Below the pieces are notes generated by a model, which saw nothing but the letters and a program-made list of their open reading frames with translations, made no database searches and was not told the origin of the DNA. From IMG/VR virus record IMGVR_UViG_3300025769_000008, positions 1 to 57,718 of that record: a DNA stretch of 57,718 nucleotides; one strand, 5' to 3'. This document shows positions 37-43,063 of this stretch, one piece after another. This DNA is from a virus. Its lineage: Duplodnaviria; Caudoviricetes. A program made the translations under genes and the position numbers. Each line of letters starts with the position of its first letter. The stretch's first letter is position 1.

Positions 37-2854
37 AAGAACAGGTGGTAAAGGTAAGCCCCCAGAAAAATCTTGGGGTGCAAGATTAGTAGAAATAGCT
101 AAAGACCCTATTACTAATATAAGTAATTACTTTGGAAACTTTAGACAGAACTTTATAGATAAATTAGATGCTGTTGATAAAGCAATTGTTAATGCTATTG
201 AAACTAATGAAGAAGTAAGACAAGCTAATAATACAGCAGATACTGCAACTATGGCTGCTATTAGATTAGCAGATAGAGCCAGAGGTTTGTTTCAACAAAT
301 GCTTACTAAAGGCACTATAAATAGCCGTATAGAAGGAGAAGATTCTTTAGCTAATGTTATTAAAAGTGAAGATGGAGGGTTAATAGAAATACTATCTCCT
401 CTTTACTCAAGACCTGAATTAGATTTAGAAAGAATATTTAAGTTTTATGCTTCTCTTAAAAGAACACAAGAGTTTGATAAAAATGGTAGATTAGTAGCCT
501 CTCCTATTACAGAAGCTGATTTTGCTCTTATAGATAAAATTGAAGCTCAGTATCCTGAAGTTAAAAATGTATTTGATGCTTATCAAAGATGGAACAATGA
601 ATTAATTACTTTTGCAGAAGAAAAAGGATTATTAAGTAAATTTAAATCTAATAATGAAATTATAAAAGAACTTGCAGAAAAAGTAGAAAAAGGCGAAATA
701 ACTTTAGACCCATCTTTAATTCCTAGTTTAGTTGAATTATCCAATGCTAATAATGGACTAAGTGTAGAAGAGATTGTAAATATTGGTAATCAATACGGAA
801 TAGATACAAGAGGACAGGCAGAAATTTGGAGAGAGCAATCTTCATATTATCCTTTCTATAGGAATATGGTAGATGATTCTGGTATAACTGCACCAACAAT
901 AGCAGGTGGTGCATTACCTAATAATCCTTTAAGTATAAAACTAGAAGGTTCTGAAGATATATTAAATGTTGATCCTCTTGAAGCAATAACTAGAAACTCT
1001 TTATCTATTCTTACAGCTTCATTAAAAAATGATGGATTAAATAAATTAATAAGAGACCTAGAGTTAGTTGGTGAAGCTAAGTTAATAAGTCCTGAACAAG
1101 CAGGTAAAACAGATTCTATATTTGTTTTTAGAGAGGGAATTAAATATCACTATGCAGTAGATAGCAATTTAGTTGAAGGCATACAAGGTATAGGTGGTGT
1201 AGGAACTGGACCAATACAAAAAGTTTTAGCTCTACCAGCAGCTTTACTTAGAGATACAGTTACTCGTGACCCTGGATTTGTTGTAGTTAATATACTCAGA
1301 GATACATTGTCATCTGCTGTAACAAGTGGTGCTGACTTTGTGCCAGTCAAAGATTCTTTAGTCAATATGTTTAGAGACATGGAAGACTTAGAACAATTTG
1401 GTGTTTTAGGTGGATATGATTTTTCCAATGATGAGGGTAGTGTTAAACAATACATAACTCGTACCATGAGACAACAAGGACTATCACCTAGTAATGGTAT
1501 GTCCGCTAAAGATGCTTTCTTTAAATTATGGGATGGACTTGGAGCTTTAACTACAAAATCAGACGGAGCTACTCGTTTAGCGGTATATGAAGCAGTACAT
1601 AAAAAATTAAAAGACCAAGGATACACAGAAGCACAGGCTCAATCTGAAGCTGCTTATCAGGCACTAGAAATAATTAATTTCGGCAGAAGAGGACAAGACC
1701 CTTTATTTAGAGTTATAACATCTGCAATACCTTTCTTAAATGCAAGAGTACAAGGTCTAGATGTTTTATATAGATCATTTACTGGTCAATATTCTGCTGT
1801 AGAAAAACTACAAGCTAACGAAACATTAGAAGATGTACAAAATAGAATACTTAGAAAAGCAGCACTTAACGCTTCATTACTAACGTCTATCACTCTTTTA
1901 TACTATTTAATGGTGCATGATACAGATGAATACAGAAATCTAAAACGTGAGGTCAGAGATGATAACTGGGTAGTACCAACACCATTTGATTATGCTATTA
2001 AGATACCAATACCTTTTGAAGTAGGTATGTTATTTAAGGCTATACCTGAAAGAGTATTTGACTTAACCCTAGGTGATGATGCTTTCAGTCAAAAATCAGT
2101 TGATGAATTATTAACATCAACAGGTCGTCAATTAGAGACATCTTTAAATCTTCCATTTATACAACCTGGAGGTGGACTACAAATACTTAAACCTTTAGCT
2201 GAAGCAGTCAGTAATAGAAATAGTTACACAGGACAAGACATTGTTCCTTACTATCAACTTCAAAGAGAACCTGGATTGCAAGCTAGAACTACTACCAATC
2301 AATTAGCCAAAGAAATCGGTGAACTGTTTAACATATCACCCGCCAAGATAGAGCACGTTTTAAGAGGTTATACGGGTACTTTAGGAGGATATGTACTCGC
2401 ACTAGCAGACACACTAACTCGTGGTGCTACAGGCGAACCTATCCTTCCTAACAATGTTGATTTAGCCAAACAATTACCTGTTGTTAATAGGCTTCTATTG
2501 GACACAGAAAAGGCGGGAGGACTGCAACAACAATTCTATGAACTTAGAAGTGAAGTAGATAGAGCAGTAGCTACGATTAACGCTCTCAAGAAACAACAAC
2601 GCTTTGATGAACTATCAGCTTACAGAAGCAATATGAAAGGTGTTGTGGGGGTCAAGGGTCAAGTAAGAGCCTTAGAAAGATACTTGGACAATTGGAGAAA
2701 GAAAAGAGACAGATTGATGAGAAACGAAAACATATCTGTAATTGCCAAGTCAGACAAGCTTAGAGAAATGGAACTAGAAAGAGATAGAAGACTAGCCTTC
2801 GTTCCTGAACTAAGAAAAAGAGCTAGAGTGCCCGTCATAAATCTGAACCTCTAA
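2..2854 (+). CDS. C-terminal part of giant polyvalent/internal virion protein (LPD38-like C-terminus); continues from 52998 across the circular join
   Basis: The frame is open from position 2 and in frame with ORF 251..2854. The C-terminal pattern (INFGRRG, IPFLNARVQG, RDDNWVVP, IKIPIPFEVG) resembles large polyvalent protein domain 38. Confidence 0.8.
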   Translation, partial: DGVDADLVEGIERTGGKGKPPEKSWGARLVEIAKDPITNISNYFGNFRQNFIDKLDAVDKAIVNAIETNEEVRQANNTADTATMAAIRLADRARGLFQQMLTKGTINSRIEGEDSLANVIKSEDGGLIEILSPLYSRPELDLERIFKFYASLKRTQEFDKNGRLVASPITEADFALIDKIEAQYPEVKNVFDAYQRWNNELITFAEEKGLLSKFKSNNEIIKELAEKVEKGEITLDPSLIPSLVELSNANNGLSVEEIVNIGNQYGIDTRGQAEIWREQSSYYPFYRNMVDDSGITAPTIAGGALPNNPLSIKLEGSEDILNVDPLEAITRNSLSILTASLKNDGLNKLIRDLELVGEAKLISPEQAGKTDSIFVFREGIKYHYAVDSNLVEGIQGIGGVGTGPIQKVLALPAALLRDTVTRDPGFVVVNILRDTLSSAVTSGADFVPVKDSLVNMFRDMEDLEQFGVLGGYDFSNDEGSVKQYITRTMRQQGLSPSNGMSAKDAFFKLWDGLGALTTKSDGATRLAVYEAVHKKLKDQGYTEAQAQSEAAYQALEIINFGRRGQDPLFRVITSAIPFLNARVQGLDVLYRSFTGQYSAVEKLQANETLEDVQNRILRKAALNASLLTSITLLYYLMVHDTDEYRNLKREVRDDNWVVPTPFDYAIKIPIPFEVGMLFKAIPERVFDLTLGDDAFSQKSVDELLTSTGRQLETSLNLPFIQPGGGLQILKPLAEAVSNRNSYTGQDIVPYYQLQREPGLQARTTTNQLAKEIGELFNISPAKIEHVLRGYTGTLGGYVLALADTLTRGATGEPILPNNVDLAKQLPVVNRLLLDTEKAGGLQQQFYELRSEVDRAVATINALKKQQRFDELSAYRSNMKGVVGVKGQVRALERYLDNWRKKRDRLMRNENISVIAKSDKLREMELERDRRLAFVPELRKRARVPVINLNL

Positions 2855-3175
2855 TTCATCTATAAGTTTCTCTTCTTTCAACTGTTTCAGCCTAAAGAAC
2901 TCATTGTGTTCAGGGTAACGAGCATGGAATAAACGGGCATAGAAGCCTATATAGTCATTACTTATCTTGAACTCTCCTCCGTTAGTTTCTATCTCACTAT
3001 GCCACCTAATGCGATTAACTATCGCCCAATGAGAGTAATGCTTTCTTCCTGTGGCAATTGCTTCCAAAGTATACTGCTCAAACTTCTCCCACACTTCAGG
3101 GTTTTGTTTGTGCCATTCCCACCAAGCTTCCTTCCTTTCTTGTAAATCATCTTTTAATTGTTCTACTAATTTCAT
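2810..3175 (-). CDS. Hypothetical phage protein
   Basis: ORF track 2810..3244; GGAGG RBS at 3180-3184 favours the ATG at 3175. Confidence 0.75.
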   Translation of the reverse strand: MKLVEQLKDDLQERKEAWWEWHKQNPEVWEKFEQYTLEAIATGRKHYSHWAIVNRIRWHSEIETNGGEFKISNDYIGFYARLFHARYPEHNEFFRLKQLKEEKLIDELEVQIYDGHSSSFS

Positions 3176-3192
3176 ATCGCCTCCAGATTTAA

Positions 3193-3681
3193 TTAACCAG
3201 TAAATATTTTTTTCTCTGAGATGGTAAAGATTTCCAACAAACACCTCGGATTATCTTTATCCACCCCCCCAAATTTATAAACCACTTCTTTGATTTGTTC
3301 AAAGCTATCATCTTCTAGTATCTCTGCCTTCACCAAAGCATCACAAGCAAACTTGTCTATGATTGAACAGGGATTACTAATGTCTAATCTTCTATTACTT
3401 CTAGCGTAATAGGTAAATACCAACTTCACAGGCTCGGTAAACCTCGGATAATCTTTAATCCTTTCTACTAATTGTTCTGAGTAAAGTTTCTTTGAAGTAG
3501 ACAACACTCGGTAATGTGCGTTGCGGTAGTTGTTTAGGTTCAGTATGAACTTCTTTTTCTTGGAGTAGTAGATTTCGAGGGGCAGCTCGATAAGGATCGA
3601 ATTTTCTGTGACTGGTAAATATTTTTTTTGTGCAGCGTCACGCTGCGTGTTATTTTTCAATAAAAACCAAAAAGGTATCAT
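3193..3681 (-). CDS. rusA: RusA-like Holliday junction resolvase
   Basis: Motif RLDISNPCSIIDKFACDALVKAEILEDD matches the RusA D-x-x-N...K...D-A-L...DD pattern. Start codon uncertain. Confidence 0.75.
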   Translation of the reverse strand: MIPFWFLLKNNTQRDAAQKKYLPVTENSILIELPLEIYYSKKKKFILNLNNYRNAHYRVLSTSKKLYSEQLVERIKDYPRFTEPVKLVFTYYARSNRRLDISNPCSIIDKFACDALVKAEILEDDSFEQIKEVVYKFGGVDKDNPRCLLEIFTISEKKIFTG

Positions 3682-3820
3682 TATCTTTCCTCACCATTGC
3701 TACAACATCCTCATCCTTCATTTTCCTTTCTGCACCTGTAAATGACTTAGCTTTAATCTCGCTAGCTTCTATAACCAACTGTTCATCTGTACTGTCAAAC
3801 GTAATTGATTTAAGTCTCAT
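3650..3820 (-). CDS. Small hypothetical protein (56 aa, MRLKSITFDS...)
   Basis: Read by hand. Its ATG overlaps the end of the upstream gene and it fills the gap in the operon; it is below the ORF-track cutoff. Confidence 0.6.
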   Translation of the reverse strand: MRLKSITFDSTDEQLVIEASEIKAKSFTGAERKMKDEDVVAMVRKDNDTFLVFIEK

Positions 3821-4112
3821 CTAGTATTTCCTTTACTTGATCTAATAATTCTTGTTCTGTTCCGTATCGCTTTTCAAACTCTTTCTTCCAAGGATGCCTA
3901 CTGACCCACATACCATTCATTGTTCCTTCTCGGTGATGCTGAAAGCAAAGAGGTAACACTAATAAATGTGCATTATCTTTTGTCTTGCCTTGAGTATGGT
4001 GAATCTCACTCGGTACAAATAGGTTGCCTTGATTCCTACAGACAATACATCCTATTTGGCTTACCTTGTCCATATGTCTTTTCTCTTCAGCAGTAGGGTT
4101 TCTTCCTTTCAT
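3810..4112 (-). CDS. Ref/DUF968-like HNH-type recombination nuclease
   Basis: CIVC...EIHH...LPLCFQHHR zinc-binding/HNH-like motif. Confidence 0.7.
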   Translation of the reverse strand: MKGRNPTAEEKRHMDKVSQIGCIVCRNQGNLFVPSEIHHTQGKTKDNAHLLVLPLCFQHHREGTMNGMWVSRHPWKKEFEKRYGTEQELLDQVKEILDET

Positions 4113-11065: not shown

Positions 11066-11336
11066 CCATTCATTATAGGCAAAATGCTATCAAATTGAAA
11101 GCGACTGAACACATTGATTGGTAGTGTTACTACTTGCATTACTTGTAGTGTTACCCATTGCTGTATTTCCTACACCAGTTGTATTCAGTAGCACTAGAGA
11201 GAATATTTACTGGTTATAGATATTTATTCGGTTAATCACGCCTACTGCTGTATTATTACGCCATTCCTCATCTCTTTCCTACACTACCCCTTATTAGTGC
11301 CTGTAGTATTTGCAATGACTTTCACAAATTTAGACC

Positions 11337-11375
11337 AAAAAAAAGAGAGATAAGTATTTGACTACCTATCTCTCT
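11337..11375 (-). terminator. Rho-independent terminator
   Basis: Minus strand AGAGAGATAGGTA...TACTTATCTCTCT stem followed by a U-tract. Confidence 0.75.
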
Positions 11376-11459
11376 CTATACATCTACTAACTAGACATGG
11401 AGGTTTCATTCGTGAAAATGAATCACTAATATAAACGATCTGATTGCACAATGCAATAC

Positions 11460-11491
11460 TTATCCACAATTAATTCACAGATTTATCCACA
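11460..11491 (+). promoter_or_regulatory. Cluster of DnaA boxes
   Basis: Perfect TTATCCACA at 11460-11468 and 11483-11491, with a degenerate TAATTCACA at 11471-11479, all in the same orientation. Confidence 0.75.
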
Positions 11492-11527
11492 GAAATTTAC
11501 TGGTAAATAGAATATTTTTCACATCCA

Positions 11528-11574
11528 TACCAACATCTTGTGCCAAACCTGTACGTCAGACACTATATCTAGAA
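11528..11574. promoter_or_regulatory. Tandem NrdR boxes
   Basis: TACCAACATCTTGTG (11528-11542) and ACACTATATCTAGAA (11560-11574) keep all strongly conserved positions of acaCwAtATaTwGtg and lie 32 bp apart. Confidence 0.6.
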
Positions 11575-11742
11575 AATGTAAAAGTAGTTTAGATGTCAAG
11601 TTCTGTTTTCTCCTTAAAGCTAGGCAGTATCGTCAAGCTTTGTGAGTTAATCGTCATTAACTTCGTTCTTCTGCTAACCAAAGTCTCCACTTTGAAAATG
11701 TCAGGCATCTAAACTCTTTTACCTTGATGATTCTAGAATGTC
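11559..11742. ncRNA. Putative structured RNA / long imperfect inverted repeat
   Basis: Arms TCTAGAA..GTAAAAG.AGTTTAGATGTC and GGCATCTAAACT.CTTTTAC..TTCTAGA enclose internal hairpins GAGTTAAT/ATTAACTT and CAAAGT/ACTTTG. Confidence 0.45.
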
Positions 11743-11764
11743 TTAGCGACAAAGTATGTCGTAT

Positions 11765-12217: not shown

Positions 12218-12257
12218 AAAAAAAAAGGCGGTAACTACCTAAGTAGCTACCGCCTTT
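12218..12257 (-). terminator. Rho-independent terminator ending the early operon
   Basis: Minus strand AAAGGCGGTAGCTAC-TTAG-GTAGTTACCGCCTTT followed by a U-tract. Confidence 0.85.
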
Positions 12258-12896: not shown

Positions 12897-13243
12897 TTAG
12901 ACACCTCCAAGATTACTCTTTTCTCTTTACCTTTACCTTTCAAAGAAAAAGTAACAGTATCACCAACATCTGCTTGAGCCTTGATACCTTTAATAGATAT
13001 CCTCCTATCTGCTCTAGCATTTTTAGTCCTGTAACATTTGACGACTGTTTTAGTGCCATCCTCAAACTCAGCTTGAAAACTGTGCCAAGAACCACTCAAC
13101 ATATCATCAAAGAATACATCTTGAGTCTTAACAAACTCTCTAATGCTAGCATTAGCATCAATGATATGTTTGTTAAGCATTGTTTTAGTTAATTTAATAA
13201 CCGCATTGGTTTTTATAACCAACCATTCTTTTTCATTACTCAT
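12893..13243 (-). CDS. Hypothetical protein resembling accessory DNA-binding domains of restriction endonucleases
   Basis: LTKTMLNKHIIDA...IREF and YRTK...DRRISIKG...A..GD pattern; GGAGG RBS at 13249-13253. Confidence 0.55.
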   Translation of the reverse strand: MSNEKEWLVIKTNAVIKLTKTMLNKHIIDANASIREFVKTQDVFFDDMLSGSWHSFQAEFEDGTKTVVKCYRTKNARADRRISIKGIKAQADVGDTVTFSLKGKGKEKRVILEVSK

Positions 13244-13272
13244 AATTTCCTCCATTGTAAGTAATAGTTAGT

Positions 13273-13335
13273 AAAACTGATTTCAAGGATTTTTCCTCTC
13301 ATCAGGCAAAAACACACATTTTTGCTATCAGTTTT
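13273..13335 (-). ncRNA. Hammerhead ribozyme HH1 (type III)
   Basis: AAAACUGA-UA^GCAAAAA-UGUGUG-UUUUUGC-CUGAUGA-GAGGA-AAAA-UCCUU-GAAA-UCAGUUUU: full core and three stems; predicted cut between 13326 and 13325 (AUA). Confidence 0.92.
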
Positions 13336-13428
13336 TAAAAATTGGCTTTCATAAGTCCAACCTAAGAGCGAAACTGAAGGTAAGTTAACCTAGGACACCT
13401 CCTAAATTAACCTACCTTTAGAATCCAC

Positions 13429-14793
13429 TTATGCGTAGAAGTCAGCAGTATCAACGTAAACCACCTCACCAAAAGGAAGGTTTTCAGAGTAACGACTCTT
13501 ATCGGTTACGCACCACACTACAGGACACTCAGGCTCTTGCTCAGGCTCTACAGTTCCATATCCATCCGTAAAGTAAACAAAGGCTTGAACGTCTTCCACA
13601 TCATCAGACCATTCATTGAACAGATGAAAGGGAGGGTCAAAGGAAGTTCCACCCCCACCACGAACCTTGAGTTCTAGGTCTTCACCTTGATTAAGTTCGT
13701 AGATATCCCACCATTCACCTTGATCATTTTTCACTACTGTAGAAGCACAGTAGCAAACTCTAACCTTGTCCAATCCGCAGTCTTCAGCCATAGCTTGTAC
13801 TTCACTCGCAAACTGATCTAGTTCGTGTTGTGAAACACTTCCGCTAGTATCAACCGCAATAGCAAGTTCTCCTCCTTCAGGATTACGAACCTTGCTAGGT
13901 AAGTTGATACCTCTCCACGCATGACGTTTATTAAGTCTAGACCAAGAATAGTCATTGCAAGTCAACGACTGTAAGAAGTCATTCAACATATCTTTCCAAG
14001 ATATAGCTGATTCTTTCTCACTTTCAATGCCACCTTTCATATTAGAAGTACCGCTTCCAAATTGCTCTAGCTTGTCAGCTAGTGAAACTGCTCTTTGAAT
14101 CTCGCCTTTGAGTTCTTGCATTTCTGCTTCGTTCATTGGCTTGCCTTCTTCGTTAGTAGCATCCCAAACTTCTCCAATTGCGGAAGGAAGATTATCAAGA
14201 TCACTCGAAATTGATTTACCCCCCCTTGGGGAATCTTCATGATATTTTCCTTTACCAGTCAATGATTGATCTTCTCCTTGATCATCAGACTCAGAATCCC
14301 CCCCACCTTCGGAATCTTGCGACTCTTCAGGCTTGTGTTCTTCGTTGTCATTGTTGATCTGATCTACCGCATCTTGCAAGGCATCCTCATCTTTAATCAG
14401 ATGTTGATACACCTTCTCAGCAGTCCAACCTTTGTACTGATAATCAAGAAGACCGCCTGTTGGCAAAGTCATTCTTAGATCATAGTGAAGGTAGTTATTG
14501 ATTACATAATCGCAAGCAATATTCCAAACTTTAGGATGTCTCTTCCCTCTCCTTAAAGGATGTTCATAGACAACGTGTAAAGCTTCGTGGACAAGTACAC
14601 CTTGCAACTCTTCTTCGGTAACACCCTCAACAAAATCAGGAAAGAAATAAATCTTCTTTCCATCAGTTGCCATAGTGTCACACTTAGAAGAATCGACCTC
14701 CACTAATTCAAGGTGTAGGAGCATACTTGCCATACCTACATTGCCTTGCATTAGCTTTGATCTAGCCTTAATGATCTTATCTAAACTAGTCAT
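13429..14793 (-). CDS. Metallopeptidase-vWA protein (DUF2201-like)
   Basis: TMATDG, HEALH zincin motif, WNIACD, MIDAS DTSGS, GGGGT and FTDG. Confidence 0.88.
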   Translation of the reverse strand: MTSLDKIIKARSKLMQGNVGMASMLLHLELVEVDSSKCDTMATDGKKIYFFPDFVEGVTEEELQGVLVHEALHVVYEHPLRRGKRHPKVWNIACDYVINNYLHYDLRMTLPTGGLLDYQYKGWTAEKVYQHLIKDEDALQDAVDQINNDNEEHKPEESQDSEGGGDSESDDQGEDQSLTGKGKYHEDSPRGGKSISSDLDNLPSAIGEVWDATNEEGKPMNEAEMQELKGEIQRAVSLADKLEQFGSGTSNMKGGIESEKESAISWKDMLNDFLQSLTCNDYSWSRLNKRHAWRGINLPSKVRNPEGGELAIAVDTSGSVSQHELDQFASEVQAMAEDCGLDKVRVCYCASTVVKNDQGEWWDIYELNQGEDLELKVRGGGGTSFDPPFHLFNEWSDDVEDVQAFVYFTDGYGTVEPEQEPECPVVWCVTDKSRYSENLPFGEVVYVDTADFYA

Positions 14794-15769
14794 TTTTCTT
14801 ACCTCCAAAGGCACGTTCTAAGAACCCACCTTTAAGTCCATCAACAGACTGCTCAAGACCTTCAGCTACTTGCTTACGTTTTGATTCACCTAGTTCTGTA
14901 TCATCCCTTAGAGACTCCACAGAGTTGATAGAAGCAAGAACGCTTACAAGTTGTTGATGAGCATCAGAGATAGATTGATCATTGCCTAAGATATCTGAAT
15001 TAATAGAAGGAAGAGTTTCAACCGCCTGTCTCAATTTCTCGATACTGCTATTGTTGAAGAAACCCTTCTGTTTGTTTTCAGGGTCGTAGGCTTTTAGCTT
15101 CTCAGCTAAATGATCTACTTGAGAAACAAGTGCATCAACAGTAGTAACTAAAATGTTCTTAATGTTGGTGCTTGCTCTGTTTACTGCATCACTCTCTATC
15201 CTCTTTCTAAGTTCGTCAGATACATTTAATCTGATATCAGAACCAAAAGTTGGTAGCGGAGACATTTCAAACTGAAAGATAAATTTATCTCTCAGCCTTT
15301 GCAAATCCCAATCGTCAGTAGGGTAATCGTCTTCGTCAAACGCATCACCTAATCTGTCTTTTGCATTCGCAATGTCTAGAGGTAGTTGCTTGAAAAAACC
15401 TTCTACCTCTCTATCCCAAATCACTTTCGCTTGATTGACTTCGTACTGAAGCTTTTCAAGTTGTGAGTTAGGACACAATCGCCAACCACCGCCAACCTTG
15501 ACTCCGTTATCGTCTGAAGTATCAGACCAAGGCAAAGTAAGGGGATAGTAAAAGTCATTCCTAAACGCATTGATAATACTGCGAAACTCTTTGTTCACAT
15601 TCCTACCAAAGATATGCTTAGAAACATTTAACAAATCAGCATTAGATTTCACATCCTCTGCTAAATCATTTTTTAAACTCTTATCTGTTTTGATACCGCT
15701 CGGATGCCCTAGAGCAACACGAACCAAAGTAGCATTCTCAGATAGAGTTGTACTTAGTTTTTTATCCAT
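14786..15769 (-). CDS. DUF3150-like protein
   Basis: YPLTLPW and RLGDAFDEDDYP motifs; sits between the AAA and vWA genes as in known triads. Confidence 0.65.
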   Translation of the reverse strand: MDKKLSTTLSENATLVRVALGHPSGIKTDKSLKNDLAEDVKSNADLLNVSKHIFGRNVNKEFRSIINAFRNDFYYPLTLPWSDTSDDNGVKVGGGWRLCPNSQLEKLQYEVNQAKVIWDREVEGFFKQLPLDIANAKDRLGDAFDEDDYPTDDWDLQRLRDKFIFQFEMSPLPTFGSDIRLNVSDELRKRIESDAVNRASTNIKNILVTTVDALVSQVDHLAEKLKAYDPENKQKGFFNNSSIEKLRQAVETLPSINSDILGNDQSISDAHQQLVSVLASINSVESLRDDTELGESKRKQVAEGLEQSVDGLKGGFLERAFGGKKND

Positions 15770-15798
15770 AATTGAACCTCCATTCAGTTAGATAAAGT

Positions 15799-15856
15799 TA
15801 TCTGATTTCATGCTTTTGCAATCATCAGTTGAGATAACACATCTCAATATCAGATA
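15799..15856 (-). ncRNA. Hammerhead ribozyme HH2 (type III)
   Basis: UAUCUGA-UA^UUGAGAU-GUGUU-AUCUCAA-CUGAUGA-UUGC-AAAA-GCAU-GAAA-UCAGAUA; predicted cut between 15848 and 15847 (AUA). Confidence 0.9.
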
Positions 15857-15924
15857 GGCTTGAGGGGAGAAAAAGAACATTTACCAGTAAATAATAAATA
15901 TTTCTCTCTCTCCCGTCAGGCGGG

Positions 15925-16974
15925 TCAGACTTCTAAGTCAGAATTTTCTACCTTAAATTCTCCATAGGTAGAAGTATCTTTTAACTCAGGTCTCGCTCCA
16001 GTCACAGAACGCACAAAGAAGATTCCAAACTCAGGGGAAGGAAACTTATTTATGAAGTTGAGACTATTCTTAAAATGGCTTGTGACGTTGTTGTCATTCG
16101 CTTCTTTAATCACAGTCACTAATGCACAGATCGTAGCGTAGCAAATGCCCCCATGATCAGGAACATCTACTTCAAGACCTTCGACTATTCGGTCAAGATC
16201 AGGCACATCATTTTTAAGAGCTAAGAAAGACATAAATTCAATTGAAGCAGTCTCGCCAATATCACATTCACAAATCAATTGCTTCAGATCGTTGGAAGGA
16301 TTAGTCTTCAAAGTATCAGACAATCTTGTCCATGCTCTCGGTGAAGGCTGAGGAGTTTTGACTTTTGGGTCAAAGACATTCAACCACTCAGGCTGAAAGT
16401 TGATATAACCCAATACATCAGGATGCACATCATTATCAACCGCCCATTTCAACCAGTCATCCGTATTGTGTTCAAAGTTAATAATTGAACAACGACCAAC
16501 CACATGAGAAGGCAGAGCATTGCTACCCGCCCTGTCGGATGATCTGTTACCCGCACAGATAACTTTCCACCCTTCGGGCAAGATGTACTCGCCCAATCTT
16601 CTCTCGTAAATGATCTGTCCTACTATGGCTTGTACACTCGGATGAGCCTGTGCATATTCATCAAAGAATAAAACACCCTCACCACCAATCGGAAGATTAC
16701 CTAAGAAGGCTCGCTTCTGTTGGTTATCGTCACCAATATAAGGCAGACCACCAAGGTCAACGGATTCATAAAGAGATAGCCTAAAGTCAATCCACCCAAA
16801 CTGCTTCGCAGTTGGATTGATTTCATCTGAAACAATCTCTCTATCGTTAGCTAGTTCCTCCGCAAGTTGTTTAACAACCGCAGATTTACCAACACCAGTT
16901 CCTCCTAAGAGGAAGGGGGCATTGCCCCCATTTAATACAGACTTCATTATCTGTAATGCTTTACTAGGATACAT
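15925..16974 (-). CDS. MoxR-type AAA+ ATPase
   Basis: Walker A GGTGVGKS, Walker B LFFDEY, AGNR sensor, SPRAW; GGAGG RBS. Confidence 0.9.
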   Translation of the reverse strand: MYPSKALQIMKSVLNGGNAPFLLGGTGVGKSAVVKQLAEELANDREIVSDEINPTAKQFGWIDFRLSLYESVDLGGLPYIGDDNQQKRAFLGNLPIGGEGVLFFDEYAQAHPSVQAIVGQIIYERRLGEYILPEGWKVICAGNRSSDRAGSNALPSHVVGRCSIINFEHNTDDWLKWAVDNDVHPDVLGYINFQPEWLNVFDPKVKTPQPSPRAWTRLSDTLKTNPSNDLKQLICECDIGETASIEFMSFLALKNDVPDLDRIVEGLEVDVPDHGGICYATICALVTVIKEANDNNVTSHFKNSLNFINKFPSPEFGIFFVRSVTGARPELKDTSTYGEFKVENSDLEV

Positions 16975-17025
16975 AAGAACCTCCATTCTATTTATCTAGT
17001 TAATGTTGCTAGCACCACGCTAGCA

Positions 17026-17086
17026 CCTATACGAACCCAACCAAAGTTAAGTTCGTTTCATAGCATTTCAGCTAATCATCAGTAGG
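17026..17086 (-). ncRNA. Hammerhead ribozyme HH3 (type I)
   Basis: CCUA-CUGAUGA-UUAGC-UGAAAU-GCUAU-GAAA-CGAACUUAAC-UUUG-GUUGGGUUCG-UA^UAGG; predicted cut between 17030 and 17029 (GUA). Confidence 0.85.
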
Positions 17087-17264
17087 CTTTCTCAGGTATG
17101 AAAGGAACGACTTCCAACTCATACCCAAGGCTCTCGATTACCGCAACGTGGTAATCATTAAAAGTCTTTGATCTTGTCAGCTTTGCTAACTTCTCAGCAG
17201 TATCGCAAACAGGATAAAGAAGGTAATTCCCAAACACATTTTTCCAAACGACTTTAATCTTCAT
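17079..17264 (-). CDS. Small hypothetical protein
   Basis: GGAGG RBS; VVWKNVFGNYLLYPVCDTAEKLAKL pattern. Confidence 0.7.
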   Translation of the reverse strand: MKIKVVWKNVFGNYLLYPVCDTAEKLAKLTRSKTFNDYHVAVIESLGYELEVVPFIPEKAY

Positions 17265-17606
17265 TTAGACCTCCACCTTAGTGAAATACCATTGATCAGA
17301 ATCAATAGGCATTTGAGTATTATCTATATGGTCAACAAGGTAAGTCTGTCCTTTGATTTTACTTAAAGACATTTTGCCCTCAAACACATCTAGAACCGCA
17401 TTGATTCTCGCTCTAGTTGTTGGAGTATCCCAACCGCATAAAGTGAATTGAACCAATGTTGAATCCTTGAGGTTTCCTTCAGGCATGATTCTCACAATCT
17501 GATTACCATGCAACCAAACACCTTCACTTGTAACAACAGTATTACCGCCTTTAAAATCCTTAGATTCATAAAGAGCAACCGCACAATTTTTATCTATATT
17601 TCTCAT
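17265..17606 (-). CDS. Hypothetical early phage protein
   Basis: GNTVV...LHGNQI...GWDTPTTRARINA motif; GGAGG RBS. Confidence 0.75.
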   Translation of the reverse strand: MRNIDKNCAVALYESKDFKGGNTVVTSEGVWLHGNQIVRIMPEGNLKDSTLVQFTLCGWDTPTTRARINAVLDVFEGKMSLSKIKGQTYLVDHIDNTQMPIDSDQWYFTKVEV

Positions 17607-17637
17607 AGTTTTCTAACCTCCATAGTTAGTTATTAGT

Positions 17638-17692
17638 TATCTGTTTCATCCTTTTGGAATCGTCAGCCAAGGTACACACCTTGATACAGATA
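17638..17692 (-). ncRNA. Hammerhead ribozyme HH4 (type III)
   Basis: UAUCUG-UA^UCAAGGU-GUGU-ACCUUGG-CUGACGA-UUCC-AAAA-GGAU-GAAA-CAGAUA; predicted cut between 17685 and 17684 (GUA). Confidence 0.9.
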
Positions 17693-17722
17693 GGGGATAC
17701 TTATTAGGCATCCCCCACTTTT

Positions 17723-18103
17723 TTATTGATCTAATCTCTTTCCTCTGAAGTGATTCTCATCTTCTTCAATCAGAGCATGAATGTCTGCATTAGCCATATC
17801 CATGACATTCTGAAAACCTACGCTTCCTACTCTGTAGATGTCTCCGTTAAAGATCATCCTATCACCTACAGAAGTAGACCTATATTCAGCACCTCTAACA
17901 AAGGTAGATACACTAGAATTCTTAGTCCAAGACTCTTCTATGTTTTGAGTCTGTGCATAAGCAAATTCTAAAGCTTCAGTACCTTCACGCTCTCCCACAT
18001 TTACAAGACCAACGACTTCAGGTTTATCGAAAGTTTTACGACCTCCAAAGTCTTCAGTCATTAAAAATGCAGTATGGATAACAGTTATAAGATTTATTTT
18101 CAT
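17723..18103 (-). CDS. YodL-like domain protein
   Basis: RSTSVGD...YRVGSVGF resembles the YodL RSLSVSD...YYVD..GF motif; GGAGG RBS. Confidence 0.55.
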   Translation of the reverse strand: MKINLITVIHTAFLMTEDFGGRKTFDKPEVVGLVNVGEREGTEALEFAYAQTQNIEESWTKNSSVSTFVRGAEYRSTSVGDRMIFNGDIYRVGSVGFQNVMDMANADIHALIEEDENHFRGKRLDQ

Positions 18104-18138
18104 TGTTTTAATCCTCCACGAATTAAGTTAGTTAATTT

Positions 18139-18188
18139 ACTGTTTCTGCTTTCGCTTCATTCAGGCTAGATACACATCTAGCGACAGT
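18139..18188 (-). ncRNA. Hammerhead ribozyme HH5 (type III, variant core)
   Basis: ACUG-UC^GCUAGAU-GUGU-AUCUAGC-CUGAAUGA-AGC-GAAA-GCA-GAAA-CAGU; one extra nucleotide in the core and a minimal stem II; predicted cut between 18183 and 18182 (GUC). Confidence 0.72.
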
Positions 18189-18189
18189 T

Positions 18190-18475
18190 GGAGGACTGTC
18201 CTCAAAGTTTCGGAATATGTCTCTTTAATGTTTCGTTCCAATTAGGTATCTCTCGATAGCTAAACGACATACTCGTTCCCTTTGAGTTGTATGAGTCTTG
18301 CTTCTTCGGTTATCTTGCACCTAACCTTTACACTCTCTCACACTAGCCACTTTCTTAGGCGGATTCAGTTGCGACCTTCACTATATTTGAACCTAATCGC
18401 ATCCTACTTCTAGAACCTTCAATCTCTCGTGAGACTGGCAGACCTTTTAAGGAGGGTGACTCGTTTGCTCCGTAG
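18190..18475 (-). ncRNA. Putative ~290-nt structured leader/non-coding RNA
   Basis: No ORF in the track; multiple nested stems, with G-U wobbles favouring the minus strand; lies between the promoter and HH5. Confidence 0.55.
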
Positions 18476-18480
18476 GAGCA

Positions 18481-18508
18481 ATCTTAACACAGAAGCACAT
18501 CATTGCAA
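18481..18508 (-). promoter_or_regulatory. Putative sigma70 early promoter
   Basis: TTGCAA-16nt-TAAGAT with an extended -10 TG, upstream of the leftward operon. Confidence 0.55.
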
Positions 18509-18592
18509 ATCATATTAGCTAGCAGACTGTGAGCATACCCAAATACTCCTTACTGGTAGATAATAATTAACAGGTAATAGGAGAACAGAACC

Positions 18593-19084
18593 ATGACAGA
18601 CAAGACAGAGAAACCGAACCTCAAGATCGTGAACAAAGACACAGACCTAACCATAAAGCAGAGGGCATTCGTAGACGAGATTATCAGGGGCAAGTTAGGA
18701 AGCTATAAGGAAGCTTACGCAAAGGTATATGACGTTACGCTAACCAAGACAGGGAAGATACCTAAGTGGGTAGAGGTAGAAGCAAGCAAGCTTGTAGCTA
18801 ACCCTAAGATAGCACTAAGCTTACATAAGGCTATACAGAGGAAAGAGGATGTTGCAGTTGCTTCTTCCCTACGTACAAGAAACTACGTTCTTGAAAGGCT
18901 CATGTCAGAGAGTAAAGAAGCAGATAGCGATGCAACAAGGGTCAGAGCATTAGAATTGTTAGGGAAGACTGTATCGCTCTTTAACGACACCATAGAGATA
19001 AAGGAAGCAAGGGATAGCGAAACCATAGAAGAGGAGATAGAAGAGAAGATCATAGCCTTACTAAGTAAAGAGGAAGCAGAGTAA
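18593..19084 (+). CDS. terS: Terminase small subunit
   Basis: LTIKQRAFV...AY...ASKL..NPKI and RVRALELLGK motifs; upstream of terL. Confidence 0.8.
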   Translation: MTDKTEKPNLKIVNKDTDLTIKQRAFVDEIIRGKLGSYKEAYAKVYDVTLTKTGKIPKWVEVEASKLVANPKIALSLHKAIQRKEDVAVASSLRTRNYVLERLMSESKEADSDATRVRALELLGKTVSLFNDTIEIKEARDSETIEEEIEEKIIALLSKEEAE

Positions 19085-27204: not shown

Positions 27205-27234
27205 AAGGGAGGCTCGCAAGGGTCTCCCTTTTTT
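27205..27234 (+). terminator. Rho-independent terminator after the capsid gene
   Basis: AAGGGAGGCTC-GCAA-GGGTCTCCCTT followed by a T-run. Confidence 0.85.
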
Positions 27235-27237
27235 CCT

Positions 27238-40279: not shown

Positions 40280-41303
40280 TATAGGAGATATATCTGAACT
40301 TAATGGTTTTGCTCAAATAGTTAGAGATAAACCATATGTAGCTAATTTAGATTTTGCAATACAAAGTAATGATGAAGCCATAACTACAAATGGAAGAATG
40401 GCTATTACTTTTTTAGATGATAGCAAGGTAAAACTTACAGAACATTCACAATTAATTATTGATGAATATATTTATGATCCTGATCCTAGTAAAGCCAAAA
40501 TGGCTCTTACATTTGGTTTAGGTACAGCTCGTTTTATAACTGGCAATCTTAATCGTATAGATAAACAAAACATAAGTCTTAAAACACCTACTGCTGATAT
40601 CGCTATAAGAGGAACGGATTTTACAGCTACAGTAGATGAATTAGGTCGTAGTTTAATAATACTGCTTCCAGACCCATTTGGGCTTTCTAGTGGCGAAATA
40701 GAAGTTGTGACTGCTATGGGTACTGTAATACTAAATAAGCCCTACGAAGCGACTACAGTAAGCGTATTTGAGTCTGCACCAAGTAAACCTGTTATTTTAG
40801 ATTTAACATTAAATCAAATAGATAATATGTTAATTGTTACTCCTCCCAAAAAAGAAGCAGTTATTGAAGAACAAATAGTCACTAAAAAAGCAAATATATT
40901 AGATTTTAATGATTTAGATATAGATTATTTAGCAGAAGATTTATTGGCTGAAGATGATTTAGAATTTAATGAATTAGATATAAATTATTTAGATGTTAAT
41001 TTTTTAGAAGATTTACTTAATGTTTTAGATGCTTTAGCAATAGAAGAAGAGGAAGATCAATTAGCACAAGCTACAAGCACACAAATAACAGGTACATTAT
41101 TAGGTAGAGACCCTGATACACAAATTACAACATTAATAACAGGTAATGTTATAAGTATGAGAAGAAGCATAAATGAATCTGTAAGAATAGATTTAGATGC
41201 CAGTAATTCTTATACAGTTATATTTATACAGGATGGAGTTTCTAATGTAGTTAAAGTAAATGGTGGTAGTGATTCAACAATAACTATAACTCAGAGTGAT
41301 TAA
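40188..41303 (+). CDS. FecR-domain periplasmic protein
   Basis: Signal peptide; ITFLDDSKVKLTEHS, GTARFITG and KTPTADIAIRGTDF FecR-domain motifs. Confidence 0.8.
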   Translation: MIGSKFYLQAVLLLLLFVSFKTTKVQAQVADIGDISELNGFAQIVRDKPYVANLDFAIQSNDEAITTNGRMAITFLDDSKVKLTEHSQLIIDEYIYDPDPSKAKMALTFGLGTARFITGNLNRIDKQNISLKTPTADIAIRGTDFTATVDELGRSLIILLPDPFGLSSGEIEVVTAMGTVILNKPYEATTVSVFESAPSKPVILDLTLNQIDNMLIVTPPKKEAVIEEQIVTKKANILDFNDLDIDYLAEDLLAEDDLEFNELDINYLDVNFLEDLLNVLDALAIEEEEDQLAQATSTQITGTLLGRDPDTQITTLITGNVISMRRSINESVRIDLDASNSYTVIFIQDGVSNVVKVNGGSDSTITITQSD

Positions 41304-43063
41304 TGAAAAAAATATTATTAGTTTTAGTTATAGTTTTATTTATTCCATTTATTACGCAAGTAAATATATTACAAATAATAAAACTTAAAACATTTGATGC
41401 TTTTGTAACTAAACAAAAACCTTCAGAATATTTTACTATTTTAAATATAACAGAAGAAGATATAGCTAATGAAGGTGGTTATCCCTTATCTAGACAAACA
41501 CTAGCACAAATACAAATAAATCTTTTACGTCAGGGTGCTATAGGAGTTGGATGGGTTATAGCTTTTCCACAACCTGATAGATTTGGTGGTGATTTTGAAT
41601 TTGCTAATGCTTTATCTTTTTCTCCTAGTGTATTAGCTATGTTTGAAGGCAAAGGAGATTATCCTCCTACAATAGGCACAGTTATATTGGGTGACGACAT
41701 TGGAGGTTTAAAAGCTGAAGGGGTAATACAAAACATAGAATTATTACAACAAAATGCAAATCAAGGTTTAGCTGTTGCAAGAACTGATATAGATAATTTA
41801 GTAAGAAGATTGCCTTTACTTATGAGAAGCAATGATGGATGGGTAGCTTCTTATGGAACAGAAGTTTTAAAAGTATTAGCTGGTGCGGATACTTATGTTA
41901 TTAAAACTAATGTTAATGGCATTGAAGAAATAAGAGTTAAAGGCTTACCGCCAGTTAAAGTAGATAGTTTTGGTAGAAAGTGGATTAGCTGGGTTAATAC
42001 ACCACAAACAAATTTACAAGAAATGAACGTGGAAGGTAAGTTTGTTTTTGTAGGTTTTACAGCAAAAGGCATAATGCCACAAATTGCTACACCAGCAGGT
42101 TTATTAGAACCACACAAAATACAAGCTGCATTAGCTGAATCTATACTTATACAAAATAGTCCACACATACCTGACTATGCACTAGCAGTAGAAGCAGTAT
42201 TATTAATTTCAATGATATTGTTAACTTGGGTGTTAATAAATATTTTTGGAATATCGTTAGGAATACTATTTACCAGTCTATTGTTTTTTTCTACAGCAGG
42301 AAGTGGGTATTATTTAATACAACAAGGTTTATTAATAGACGTAACATGGTCGCTTATATCTCAGTTTATTACAGCAGCAACAGCTTTTTATTTAAGATTT
42401 AGAGAACAATACAAATTAAGACAACAAATAAAACAACAGTTTGGAAAATACTTAGACCCAAGGATGGTTAAGAAATTACAAGATAATCCTGAACTTTGTC
42501 AGGTTAATGGTAAAAGAGTTGATTGTTCTATTATTTTTACAGACCTTAGAGGATTTACTAGCTTATCGGAATCAGTTGAACCTGAAGTAGTAACCTACAT
42601 TATGAATTCTGTATTAGATGCACAAGTACAAGCAGCTAATAAATATTTTGGATGCACAGATAAATTTATTGGAGATGCTGGTATGTTTCATTGGAATACT
42701 ATTATTCCACAAGAAGATCATTACAATCTTGCTTTACAAGCAGCAAAAGAAATAGAAAAAAATATTGACCAGTTAAATATTAAATTTGCAGAAGAAGATA
42801 TACCTGAAGTTGCTATTGGTATAGGTGTAAATTCTGGAGTTTGTATAGCTGGTAACTTTGGAGCAACAGATAGATTTGCATTTAGCCTTATAGGAGACCC
42901 TTGTAATGTAGCAGCTAGACTAGAATCAAGTACAAAGGTTGCAGGAGTAGGAGTTTTGATAGGTGAAGAAACTGCCAAATATAGCGATTTTAAGCTACAA
43001 TTATTAGAACCTATAGAAGTAAAAGGTAAAGCTAAACCATTACAGGTTTATACATGGGCATAA
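41303..43063 (+). CDS. CHASE2-domain membrane adenylyl cyclase (class III)
   Basis: CHASE2 motifs (GGYPLSR, FPQPDR, D.DNLVRRLPL), three TM helices, and cyclase motifs FTDLRGFT, DKFIGD, IGIGVNSG and SLIGDPCNVAARLE. Confidence 0.92.
   Translation: MKKILLVLVIVLFIPFITQVNILQIIKLKTFDAFVTKQKPSEYFTILNITEEDIANEGGYPLSRQTLAQIQINLLRQGAIGVGWVIAFPQPDRFGGDFEFANALSFSPSVLAMFEGKGDYPPTIGTVILGDDIGGLKAEGVIQNIELLQQNANQGLAVARTDIDNLVRRLPLLMRSNDGWVASYGTEVLKVLAGADTYVIKTNVNGIEEIRVKGLPPVKVDSFGRKWISWVNTPQTNLQEMNVEGKFVFVGFTAKGIMPQIATPAGLLEPHKIQAALAESILIQNSPHIPDYALAVEAVLLISMILLTWVLINIFGISLGILFTSLLFFSTAGSGYYLIQQGLLIDVTWSLISQFITAATAFYLRFREQYKLRQQIKQQFGKYLDPRMVKKLQDNPELCQVNGKRVDCSIIFTDLRGFTSLSESVEPEVVTYIMNSVLDAQVQAANKYFGCTDKFIGDAGMFHWNTIIPQEDHYNLALQAAKEIEKNIDQLNIKFAEEDIPEVAIGIGVNSGVCIAGNFGATDRFAFSLIGDPCNVAARLESSTKVAGVGVLIGEETAKYSDFKLQLLEPIEVKGKAKPLQVYTWA

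Follow-up and report, generated by a model that had tools for sequence, protein, structure and literature searches.

Why should the hammerhead ribozyme motifs of a phage operon be accompanied by additional hairpins, and why should these lie on the side of the cut that would otherwise carry no structure? The question is raised by IMGVR_UViG_3300025769_000008, a complete virus record (Caudoviricetes) of 57,718 bases with direct terminal repeats, which is termed the window below. Its minus strand carries an operon, from about 18.5 to 12.2 kilobases (kb), with five hammerhead motifs (HH1-HH5), four of type III and one of type I. An original prediction had proposed that every cleavage product of this operon has structure at both ends, in support of a role in mRNA stabilisation. 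In the present analysis the accessory hairpins were confirmed for four of the five ribozymes and the pattern was generalised to other phages, the proposal failing for HH5; a stabilising role is plausible on these sequence comparisons. We see about an even chance that the hairpins are conserved RNA elements of processing cassettes, providing a terminal structure for the fragment that loses its ribozyme; cleavage in vivo and an effect on stability are what we infer. The five motifs, in window coordinates, are as follows.

13273-13335, minus strand: HH1, a type III hammerhead with a predicted cut after 13326; descriptor match.
15799-15856, minus strand: HH2, type III, predicted cut after 15848; descriptor match, with stems I and II covarying among orthologues.
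17025-17087, minus strand: HH3, type I, predicted cut after 17030; descriptor match.
17638-17692, minus strand: HH4, type III, predicted cut after 17685; sub-threshold match to RF00008 and covariation in alignment A5.
18139-18188, minus strand: HH5, type III with a one-base insertion after A6 (CUGAAUGA), predicted cut after 18183, in the leader of the first gene; descriptor match.

The descriptor, which comprises the core CUGANGA (one extra base tolerated), GAAA, UH and stems I-III, matched the window exactly five times, always on the minus strand; the plus strand and the reversed sequence gave none. In a total of 871,041 bases (the window and 99 loci) there were 136 matches, versus two on the reversed sequences. 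The full conserved core (C3 U4 G5 A6 N7 G8 A9, G12 A13 A14, A15.1-U16.1, H17) is present in HH1-HH4, while that of HH5 deviates by one extra A after A6. The orthologues of HH5 have a canonical CUGAUGA core in 11 loci, with a covarying stem I, and an insertion at this point (A6a) is reported as a low-activity variant in the main text of PMC3088659. In an alignment (A5) of eighteen 51-nucleotide (nt) type III examples, 17 of them distinct, the three stems are 95.2% paired with compensatory changes at 11 of 16 pairs, slid controls giving 32-46%; since pairing was itself a condition of the descriptor that selected the rows, the weight rests on the compensatory changes and on the reversed-sequence control.

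Rfam reported no hammerhead at gathering threshold across the whole window, and a search of 7 kb with E <= 10 gave none either; when 681 nt were searched, HH4 matched RF00008 from end to end with 30.6 bits (gathering threshold 48.5; E = 1.6e-4). The scores are low because position 10.1/11.1 is not a G-C pair: it is U-U in HH2, HH3 and HH4, G-U in HH1 and A-A in HH5, and it is non-standard in 13 of the 17 distinct A5 rows. According to the main text of PMC3088659 the U10.1-U11.1 mismatch is tolerated, and a hammerhead of phage PaP3 is among the active variants. In PaP3 (L142) positions 45468-45418 of the minus strand form a type III hammerhead of the subtype seen in the window (U-U at 10.1/11.1, stem II of three pairs), placed immediately before orf71, where the leftward genes (the early operon) begin, and this ribozyme was likewise missed by Rfam at gathering threshold. 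Judged from sequence and covariation, the five hammerheads are real motifs, with self-cleavage predicted. Assembled contigs from four RNA-library runs span the HH2 and HH3 cuts and cover parts of the operon, an observation compatible with cleavage or with none and not a proof of transcription. The UGA inside the HH3 core CUGAUGA (17079-17082) doubles as the stop codon of the open reading frame (ORF) 17079-17264, so that a terminating ribosome would sit on the ribozyme core.

The accessory hairpins of HH1-HH4 are listed next, with folding energies in kcal/mol and z as the comparison of the fold energy with that of shuffled sequences.

13377-13418, minus strand: H1a, hairpin of HH1, 19 base pairs (bp) of which three are G-U, energy -24.4, z -6.2; just after the stop codon of ORF 13429-14814.
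13341-13361, minus strand: H1b, a weak second hairpin of HH1, energy -4.7, z -2.8; followed by five U and ending 5 nt before stem III.
15864-15914, minus strand: H2, hairpin of HH2, 22 bp rich in A/U and G-U pairs (five G-U), energy -23.8, z -6.05; ends 7 nt before stem III.
17007-17025, minus strand: H3, hairpin of HH3, 7 bp with a 5-nt loop, energy -10.5; begins 4 nt past the cut, at the 5' end of the downstream fragment.
17692-17716, minus strand: H4, hairpin of HH4, 9 bp with the 7-nt loop CUAAUAA, energy -13.5; it shares one base with HH4 stem III, the final base of the hairpin being the first of the stem.

The computed folds bear out what had been predicted of these elements. Hairpins precede the type III ribozymes HH1, HH2 and HH4 where they had been placed, that of HH5 being weak and unconserved, and the type I ribozyme HH3 is followed by one whose true span differs by one base. 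The lengths predicted for HH1 (19 bp with G-U pairs) and HH2 (about 22 bp, many G-U) were recovered. At the coordinates originally given, H3 (17006-17024) has an energy of -9.8 and z of -2.9, and H4 (17693-17715) an energy of -11.9 and z of -3.7; as a group the hairpins of HH1-HH4 fold better than shuffled sequences, with z between -2.8 and -6.2. Folding of the opposite strand gives -14.7 for H1a and -10.3 for H2, that is 10-13 kcal/mol weaker, which marks these two as features of the sense RNA.

Beyond the window, the comparison set consisted of 19 related loci (ATPase 68-100% identical; loci carry L numbers below) with 79 further descriptor matches, 84 with the five of the window. A wider sample was drawn with a type III core pattern scan blind to the flanks, which gave 80 loci from other viral contigs, 27 of them holding 53 descriptor matches. 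The 40-nt flanks of type III ribozymes (n = 85) have a mean energy of -9.57 upstream versus -4.25 downstream (Wilcoxon, 2.8e-9), and those of type I ribozymes (n = 29) a mean of -8.60 downstream versus -5.89 upstream (p = 0.0056); random 40-nt windows average -4.80. Flanks were also clustered into families at 75% identity and scored for a flush hairpin, defined as a perfect hairpin of at least 6 bp lying no more than 2 nt from the open helix. Of the 43 type III families, 20 have such a hairpin upstream (p = 1e-10) and five have it downstream (p = 0.31), whereas of the 13 type I families eight have it downstream (p = 2.7e-6) and one upstream, the rate at random positions being 8.7-8.8%. On these comparisons the side of the hairpin switches with the type of the ribozyme, in related and in unrelated aquatic phages. 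A cruder test (at least 6 bp within 12 nt) was discarded as too lax, with a background of 24-28% and hits downstream of 54 of 88 type III ribozymes.

Ordinary gene-end hairpins might by coincidence share short intergenic regions with ribozymes, given that hairpin and ribozyme alike have to be accommodated in the space from stop codon to ribosome-binding site and that hairpins are found in other intergenic regions of the window too. This we hold to be extremely improbable: the hairpin changes sides with the ribozyme type and abuts the open helix far above the random rate, and the downstream flanks of type III ribozymes are, by the means given above, unstructured.

The closeness of hairpin and ribozyme suggests another role, in which the hairpin would stack coaxially on the open helix (stem III of a type III ribozyme, stem I of a type I) and strengthen a helix of 4-8 bp, while shielding the ribozyme from mispairing with flanking coding sequence; in the type I version it may take the place of the distal stem I segment that docks with loop II. 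The synthetic insulator RiboJ (PMC6206723) likewise joins a hammerhead to an extra hairpin. No gap separates hairpin and open helix in 22 of the 43 distinct hairpins upstream of type III ribozymes and in 23 of the 26 downstream of type I ribozymes (30 instances examined), and the open helices are short (stem III 3-8 bp, stem I 5 bp). Help of this kind with folding is nevertheless unlikely, and the shielding equally so, since the HH2 and HH1 classes have gaps of 5-12 nt, as does the L031 kind, and ribozymes of the same subtype occur without a hairpin. The known loop-loop tertiary contact of hammerheads does not involve stem III, and inspection by eye revealed no complementarity (pseudoknot) between the loops of accessory hairpins and ribozymes.

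Conservation of the hairpins was assessed by covariation. The upstream hairpin of the HH4 kind (alignment A1, 17 distinct sequences) is 99.4% paired with compensatory changes at eight of ten pairs (slid controls 38-69%), and the type I downstream hairpin (alignment A2, eighteen rows) is 99.2% paired with compensatory changes at five of seven (slid controls 13-55%); the percentages, though not the compensatory changes, are partly a matter of construction because rows were chosen for loop motif or hairpin. Rows of A1 were selected by loop motif and not by stem, with four duplicate L049 rows excluded, and its 7-nt loop is constant while the stem varies. A2 excluded six hairpin-less type I instances (L005:3601, L018:2439, two in L034, L052 and L083) and two duplicates, and its misaligned row L029 was scored as gaps. 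In H2 the palindromic apex has 15 invariant columns in nine sequences, the lower stem differs and six of 14 consensus pairs show compensatory changes. H1a is kept in five sequences, with compensatory changes at four of 27 consensus pairs. The covariation indicates that the hairpins are selected as RNA.

The constancy of certain loops invites the further explanation that the hairpins are binding or processing sites, recognised by a phage or host RNA-binding protein or by ribonuclease III (RNase III), and that the H2 apex may be an operator at the DNA level. The A1 loop stays constant while eight of ten stem pairs change, and the invariant H2 apex sits on lower stems that differ among relatives. 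RNase III needs a duplex of about 20 bp or more, a length that H1a (19 bp) and H2 (22 bp) have and that H3 and H4 fall short of. In addition, a 15-nt palindrome (TATTTACYRGTAAAT, at most two mismatches) has 13 copies on both strands of the window versus 1.6 expected, a number reached by none of 100 shuffles. Copies include 15878-15893, 11494-11509, 3191-3206 and 1776-1791; one is the invariant H2 apex and another lies in the intergenic region 11066-11764 without a long hairpin around it. On its distribution in the sequence, the palindrome may be a protein-binding site at the DNA or RNA level. As an account of the accessory hairpins, recognition by a partner is quite unlikely: hairpins of other phages have unrelated loops (GAAA-type or longer), so that the rule as a whole is not tied to a particular loop; no binding protein came to light as a candidate, and the G-U pairs make the long stems specific to RNA.

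An obvious objection to any post-transcriptional role is that the hairpins act as terminators, so that the ribozymes are never transcribed. A terminator scan of the window called none of the ribozyme-adjacent hairpins H1a, H1b, H2 and H4, while the same scan called two canonical minus-strand terminators, at 12257-12224 and 11377-11342, outside the ribozyme region. In this phage U-tract terminator hairpins thus occur without a ribozyme, and the hairpins beside ribozymes are not canonical terminators. The prediction that none has a minus-strand U-tract agrees with the scan and needs qualifying for H1b, which is followed by five U after a weak stem; this run is not kept in the relatives L005 and L006. 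Canonical hairpin-plus-U-run terminators occur on both strands of the window (27205-27235, plus; 12224-12257 and 11342-11377, minus), so the host of the phage reads ordinary intrinsic terminators.

A softer variant of the objection is that the hairpins are leaky terminators or pause sites which set the ratio of upstream to downstream expression, with the ribozyme tidying up read-through transcripts. Three other phages (L043:4898, L045:4282 and L067:3748) have a G+C-rich upstream hairpin followed by 7-8 U running into stem III, so that a terminator-like version of the cassette exists elsewhere; U-rich 5' strands of stem III and the position of the hairpins after stop codons point the same way. 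We nevertheless regard this as very unlikely to be their function, in view of the scan results. The ribozymes beyond the hairpins are conserved with covariation and must be transcribed, and a hairpin that follows a type I ribozyme would be left unexplained.

If the hairpins instead protect RNA ends, as the original prediction has it, a single minus-strand transcript, beginning at about 18.5 kb and stopping at the terminator (12257-12224), would be divided by self-cleavage at five sites, giving a leader and five coding pieces. In each cassette the accessory hairpin and the hammerhead would be combined with a short leader of standard form that contains the ribosome-binding site UGGAGG. At a type III site the ribozyme would be kept by the downstream piece, its 5'-OH end flush with the stem I hairpin, and the accessory hairpin would become the 3'-terminal structure of the upstream piece. 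At a type I site the ribozyme would be kept by the upstream piece as its 3' structure, and the accessory hairpin, 4 nt past the cut, would be the 5' structure of the downstream piece. Hairpins so placed would block 3' exonucleases and 5'-end-dependent decay, with no host processing enzyme required. The predicted pieces are the following.

Up to 18183, minus strand: leader, its 3' end predicted to refold into a flush 6-bp hairpin.
18182-17685, minus strand: piece 1, predicted to begin with HH5 stem I and to end with H4 plus 7 nt.
17684-17030, minus strand: piece 2, predicted to begin with HH4 stem I and to end with the HH3 body.
17029-15848, minus strand: piece 3, predicted to begin with 4 nt and then H3, and to end with H2 plus 16 nt.
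15847-13326, minus strand: piece 4, predicted to begin with HH2 stem I and to end with H1a, H1b and 15 nt.
13325 to about 12224, minus strand: piece 5, predicted to begin with HH1 stem I and to end with the terminator.

The proposal of structure at both ends of every product is thus upheld for the five coding fragments, each predicted to have a hairpin no more than 16 nt from either end, and fails in respect of the hairpin that had been put forward for HH5. As the hairpin usually abuts the open helix, the single-stranded tail left over would be short, amounting to 7 nt at HH4 and 0 nt at an alternative HH5 hairpin, with a 4-nt 5' overhang at HH3. Two hairpins were considered for HH5.

18191-18203, minus strand: the HH5 hairpin as first stated, 5 bp with a triloop, energy -4.3, z -2.0.
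18183-18200, minus strand: the alternative HH5 hairpin, 6 bp with a CCUCCA loop, energy -5.8, z -3.4; includes the 5' strand of stem III and the cleavage nucleotide.

The first was rejected: it is 68.9% paired in nine distinct relatives, does no better than shuffles and shows no covariation. The alternative is 98.1% paired (nine distinct sequences) with one compensatory change from G-C to A-U and is equalled by 51 of 500 shuffles, so that its conservation is suggestive; once cut, it would sit flush with the 3' end. HH5 forms the leader of the operon and has no gene upstream, here and in locus L002, and the PaP3 ribozyme, also at an operon head, has only a weak hairpin overlapping stem III. In all three settings without an upstream gene there is only a weak hairpin that overlaps the cut site, which fits the idea that hairpin strength tracks need, the strong hairpin being missing where there is no upstream gene to protect.

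The invariant CCUCCA loop of the alternative hairpin (18183-18200) is complementary to the UGGAGG ribosome-binding site past HH5 (18108-18120), which is invariant as well. The minimum-energy fold of the whole region pairs the two, and on this model cleavage by HH5 could free the ribosome-binding site. Downstream of several ribozymes (17609-17634 in the window; L003, L004, L006, L007, L011 and L014) a 6-bp hairpin holds part of UGGAGG in its loop and 3' arm, and this hairpin may tune translation.

Besides the failure of the first HH5 hairpin, the choice of rows in A1 and A2 and the U runs in three other phages, several points weigh against end protection. An exonuclease could load on tails of the length predicted at HH2 (16 nt) and HH1 (15 nt), and RNase III might cut the long perfect duplexes of H1a (19 bp) and H2 (22 bp), in which case ends would be lost instead of protected. 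End protection gives no account of why the loop CUAAUAA is conserved and the H2 apex invariant, and the flush geometry fits a folding-helper role equally well. Hairpin-less families exist, among them five of 13 type I families and the type III families of L059, L063, L082 and L098. Under a laxer energy measure (any single hairpin no longer than 65 nt that lies within 12 nt and reaches -8 kcal/mol) type III ribozymes separate clearly, with 59 of 88 upstream versus five of 88 downstream, while type I ribozymes do not (13 of 30 downstream versus 17 of 30 upstream; random 0.36-0.38). Decay that depends on a 5'-monophosphate acts poorly on a 5'-OH end in any case, so a 5' hairpin may be redundant. 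End protection, help with folding and recognition by a partner are not mutually exclusive.

The cassettes also coincide with breaks in gene order. Synteny breaks relative to L003, L004 and L007 fall at cassettes (18109/17723, 17089-17076 and 17603 in the window). In L003 a different gene stands in place of ORF 17723-18103, the cassettes on either side being conserved; L003 also has two type I ribozymes, with an additional 240 bp between them, at a point occupied in the window by a single chimeric ribozyme. L007 is without the gene and cassette that lie between HH5 and HH4. In sequence comparison the cassettes look like recombination joints. Locus L014 has seven hammerheads within 2.4 kb (1562-3949), which delimit six short stretches with seven ORFs of 58-135 residues, four of them bracketed singly by ribozymes; two of its type III ribozymes as well as an HH5-like one have the extra A after A6. 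More tentatively, and with odds that we would put somewhat below even, many aquatic phages may share a host-independent three-part cassette in which the hairpin always lies on the fragment losing the ribozyme, each gene or gene pair obtains a stable mRNA of its own and the cassettes act as joints for swapping small genes.

As to the setting, the minus strand of the window codes genes from about 18.1 to 2.8 kb. Every gene gap of more than 50 nt in the operon holds a cassette, and the remaining junctions abut or overlap. Products of the operon include small proteins, one with a Kyanoviridae Gp96-like domain, and a 327-residue protein that belongs to no known family. The other annotated features are as follows.

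15925-16986, minus strand: MoxR-like AAA ATPase (protein annotation).
13429-14814, minus strand: DUF2201 metallopeptidase/VWA-like protein (protein annotation).
12224-12257, minus strand: canonical intrinsic terminator with a 15-bp stem and a U run, which closes the ribozyme-punctuated operon (terminator scan).

A blastn search of 13000-18600 against cultured phages gave no match, and tblastn with the VWA-like protein gave a best hit of 28.5% identity, so that no close cultured relative was found by these searches. Elsewhere in the window (41303-43063, plus strand), a phage protein combines a CHASE2 sensor domain (E = 3.8e-27) with an adenylate/guanylate cyclase domain (E = 3.3e-15).

Clusters of type I and type III hammerheads between genes of phages and prophages have been described, with the proposal that they cut the transcript into gene-length mRNAs (Perreault et al. 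2011, main text of PMC3088659). The present operon resembles those clusters in having multiple hammerheads of both types between the genes of one transcript and shares with them U10.1-U11.1 and the A6 insertion, while the accessory hairpins and the rule governing their side are features of this operon of which no mention was found there. In that main text 'terminator' does not occur and 'hairpin' occurs twice, once for stem-closing loops, although the supplementary figures could show flanks. Nor was a mention of flanking hairpins found in the accessible text of PMC6765202, a 2019 review which calls the roles of bacterial and phage self-cleaving ribozymes 'largely elusive', and the open full-text literature, as distinct from subscription journals and supplementary files, yielded no prior account of hairpins flanking phage hammerheads. 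The polycistronic-processing proposal of PMC3088659, as set out in its main text, has so far been short of supporting anatomy, and a covarying hairpin whose side depends on the permutation is a feature to be expected from it. If the present reading is correct, long-unexplained phage hammerheads would have a defined job, in a processing system independent of host RNase. Such a system would be nature's equivalent of the synthetic ribozyme insulators and could supply compact parts for building multi-gene constructs. The coincidence of cassettes with the borders of gene swaps would also bear on the shuffling of small genes in phage genomes.

Among known systems, intrinsic terminators and 3' stabiliser hairpins likewise place a stable hairpin just past a stop codon; the ribozyme-side hairpins of the window differ in not being called as terminators, though some versions in other phages carry a U-tract. 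In phage T7, RNase III sites lie between the early genes and the cut leaves a 3' hairpin that is held to stabilise the upstream mRNA. What the two would have in common are intercistronic cuts in a long phage transcript which leave the upstream mRNA ending in a hairpin, but in T7 a host enzyme cuts inside the hairpin, whereas here self-cleavage is predicted beside a separate hairpin and, being self-catalysed, would need no host enzyme. RiboJ shares with the cassettes a type III hammerhead and a hairpin in a 5' leader ahead of the ribosome-binding site, giving a standard 5' end; it is man-made and has its hairpin downstream of the ribozyme, whereas here the hairpin lies on the other side of the cut and would serve the neighbouring fragment. 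Comparable in genomic habit are the T4-type PeSL cassettes, which in the accessible text of PMC2839356 and PMC4122927 are likewise composite intergenic elements with a stem-loop that flank small variable genes and mark shuffling joints, and like them the present cassettes stand at the borders of gene replacements and indels relative to L003, L004 and L007. Promoter-like sites were not in excess (33 versus 46.6 in shuffles; only one match at nine of 12 positions overlaps H2), and the two systems part company at this point, the new 5' end coming from a promoter in PeSLs and, as predicted here, from a ribozyme.

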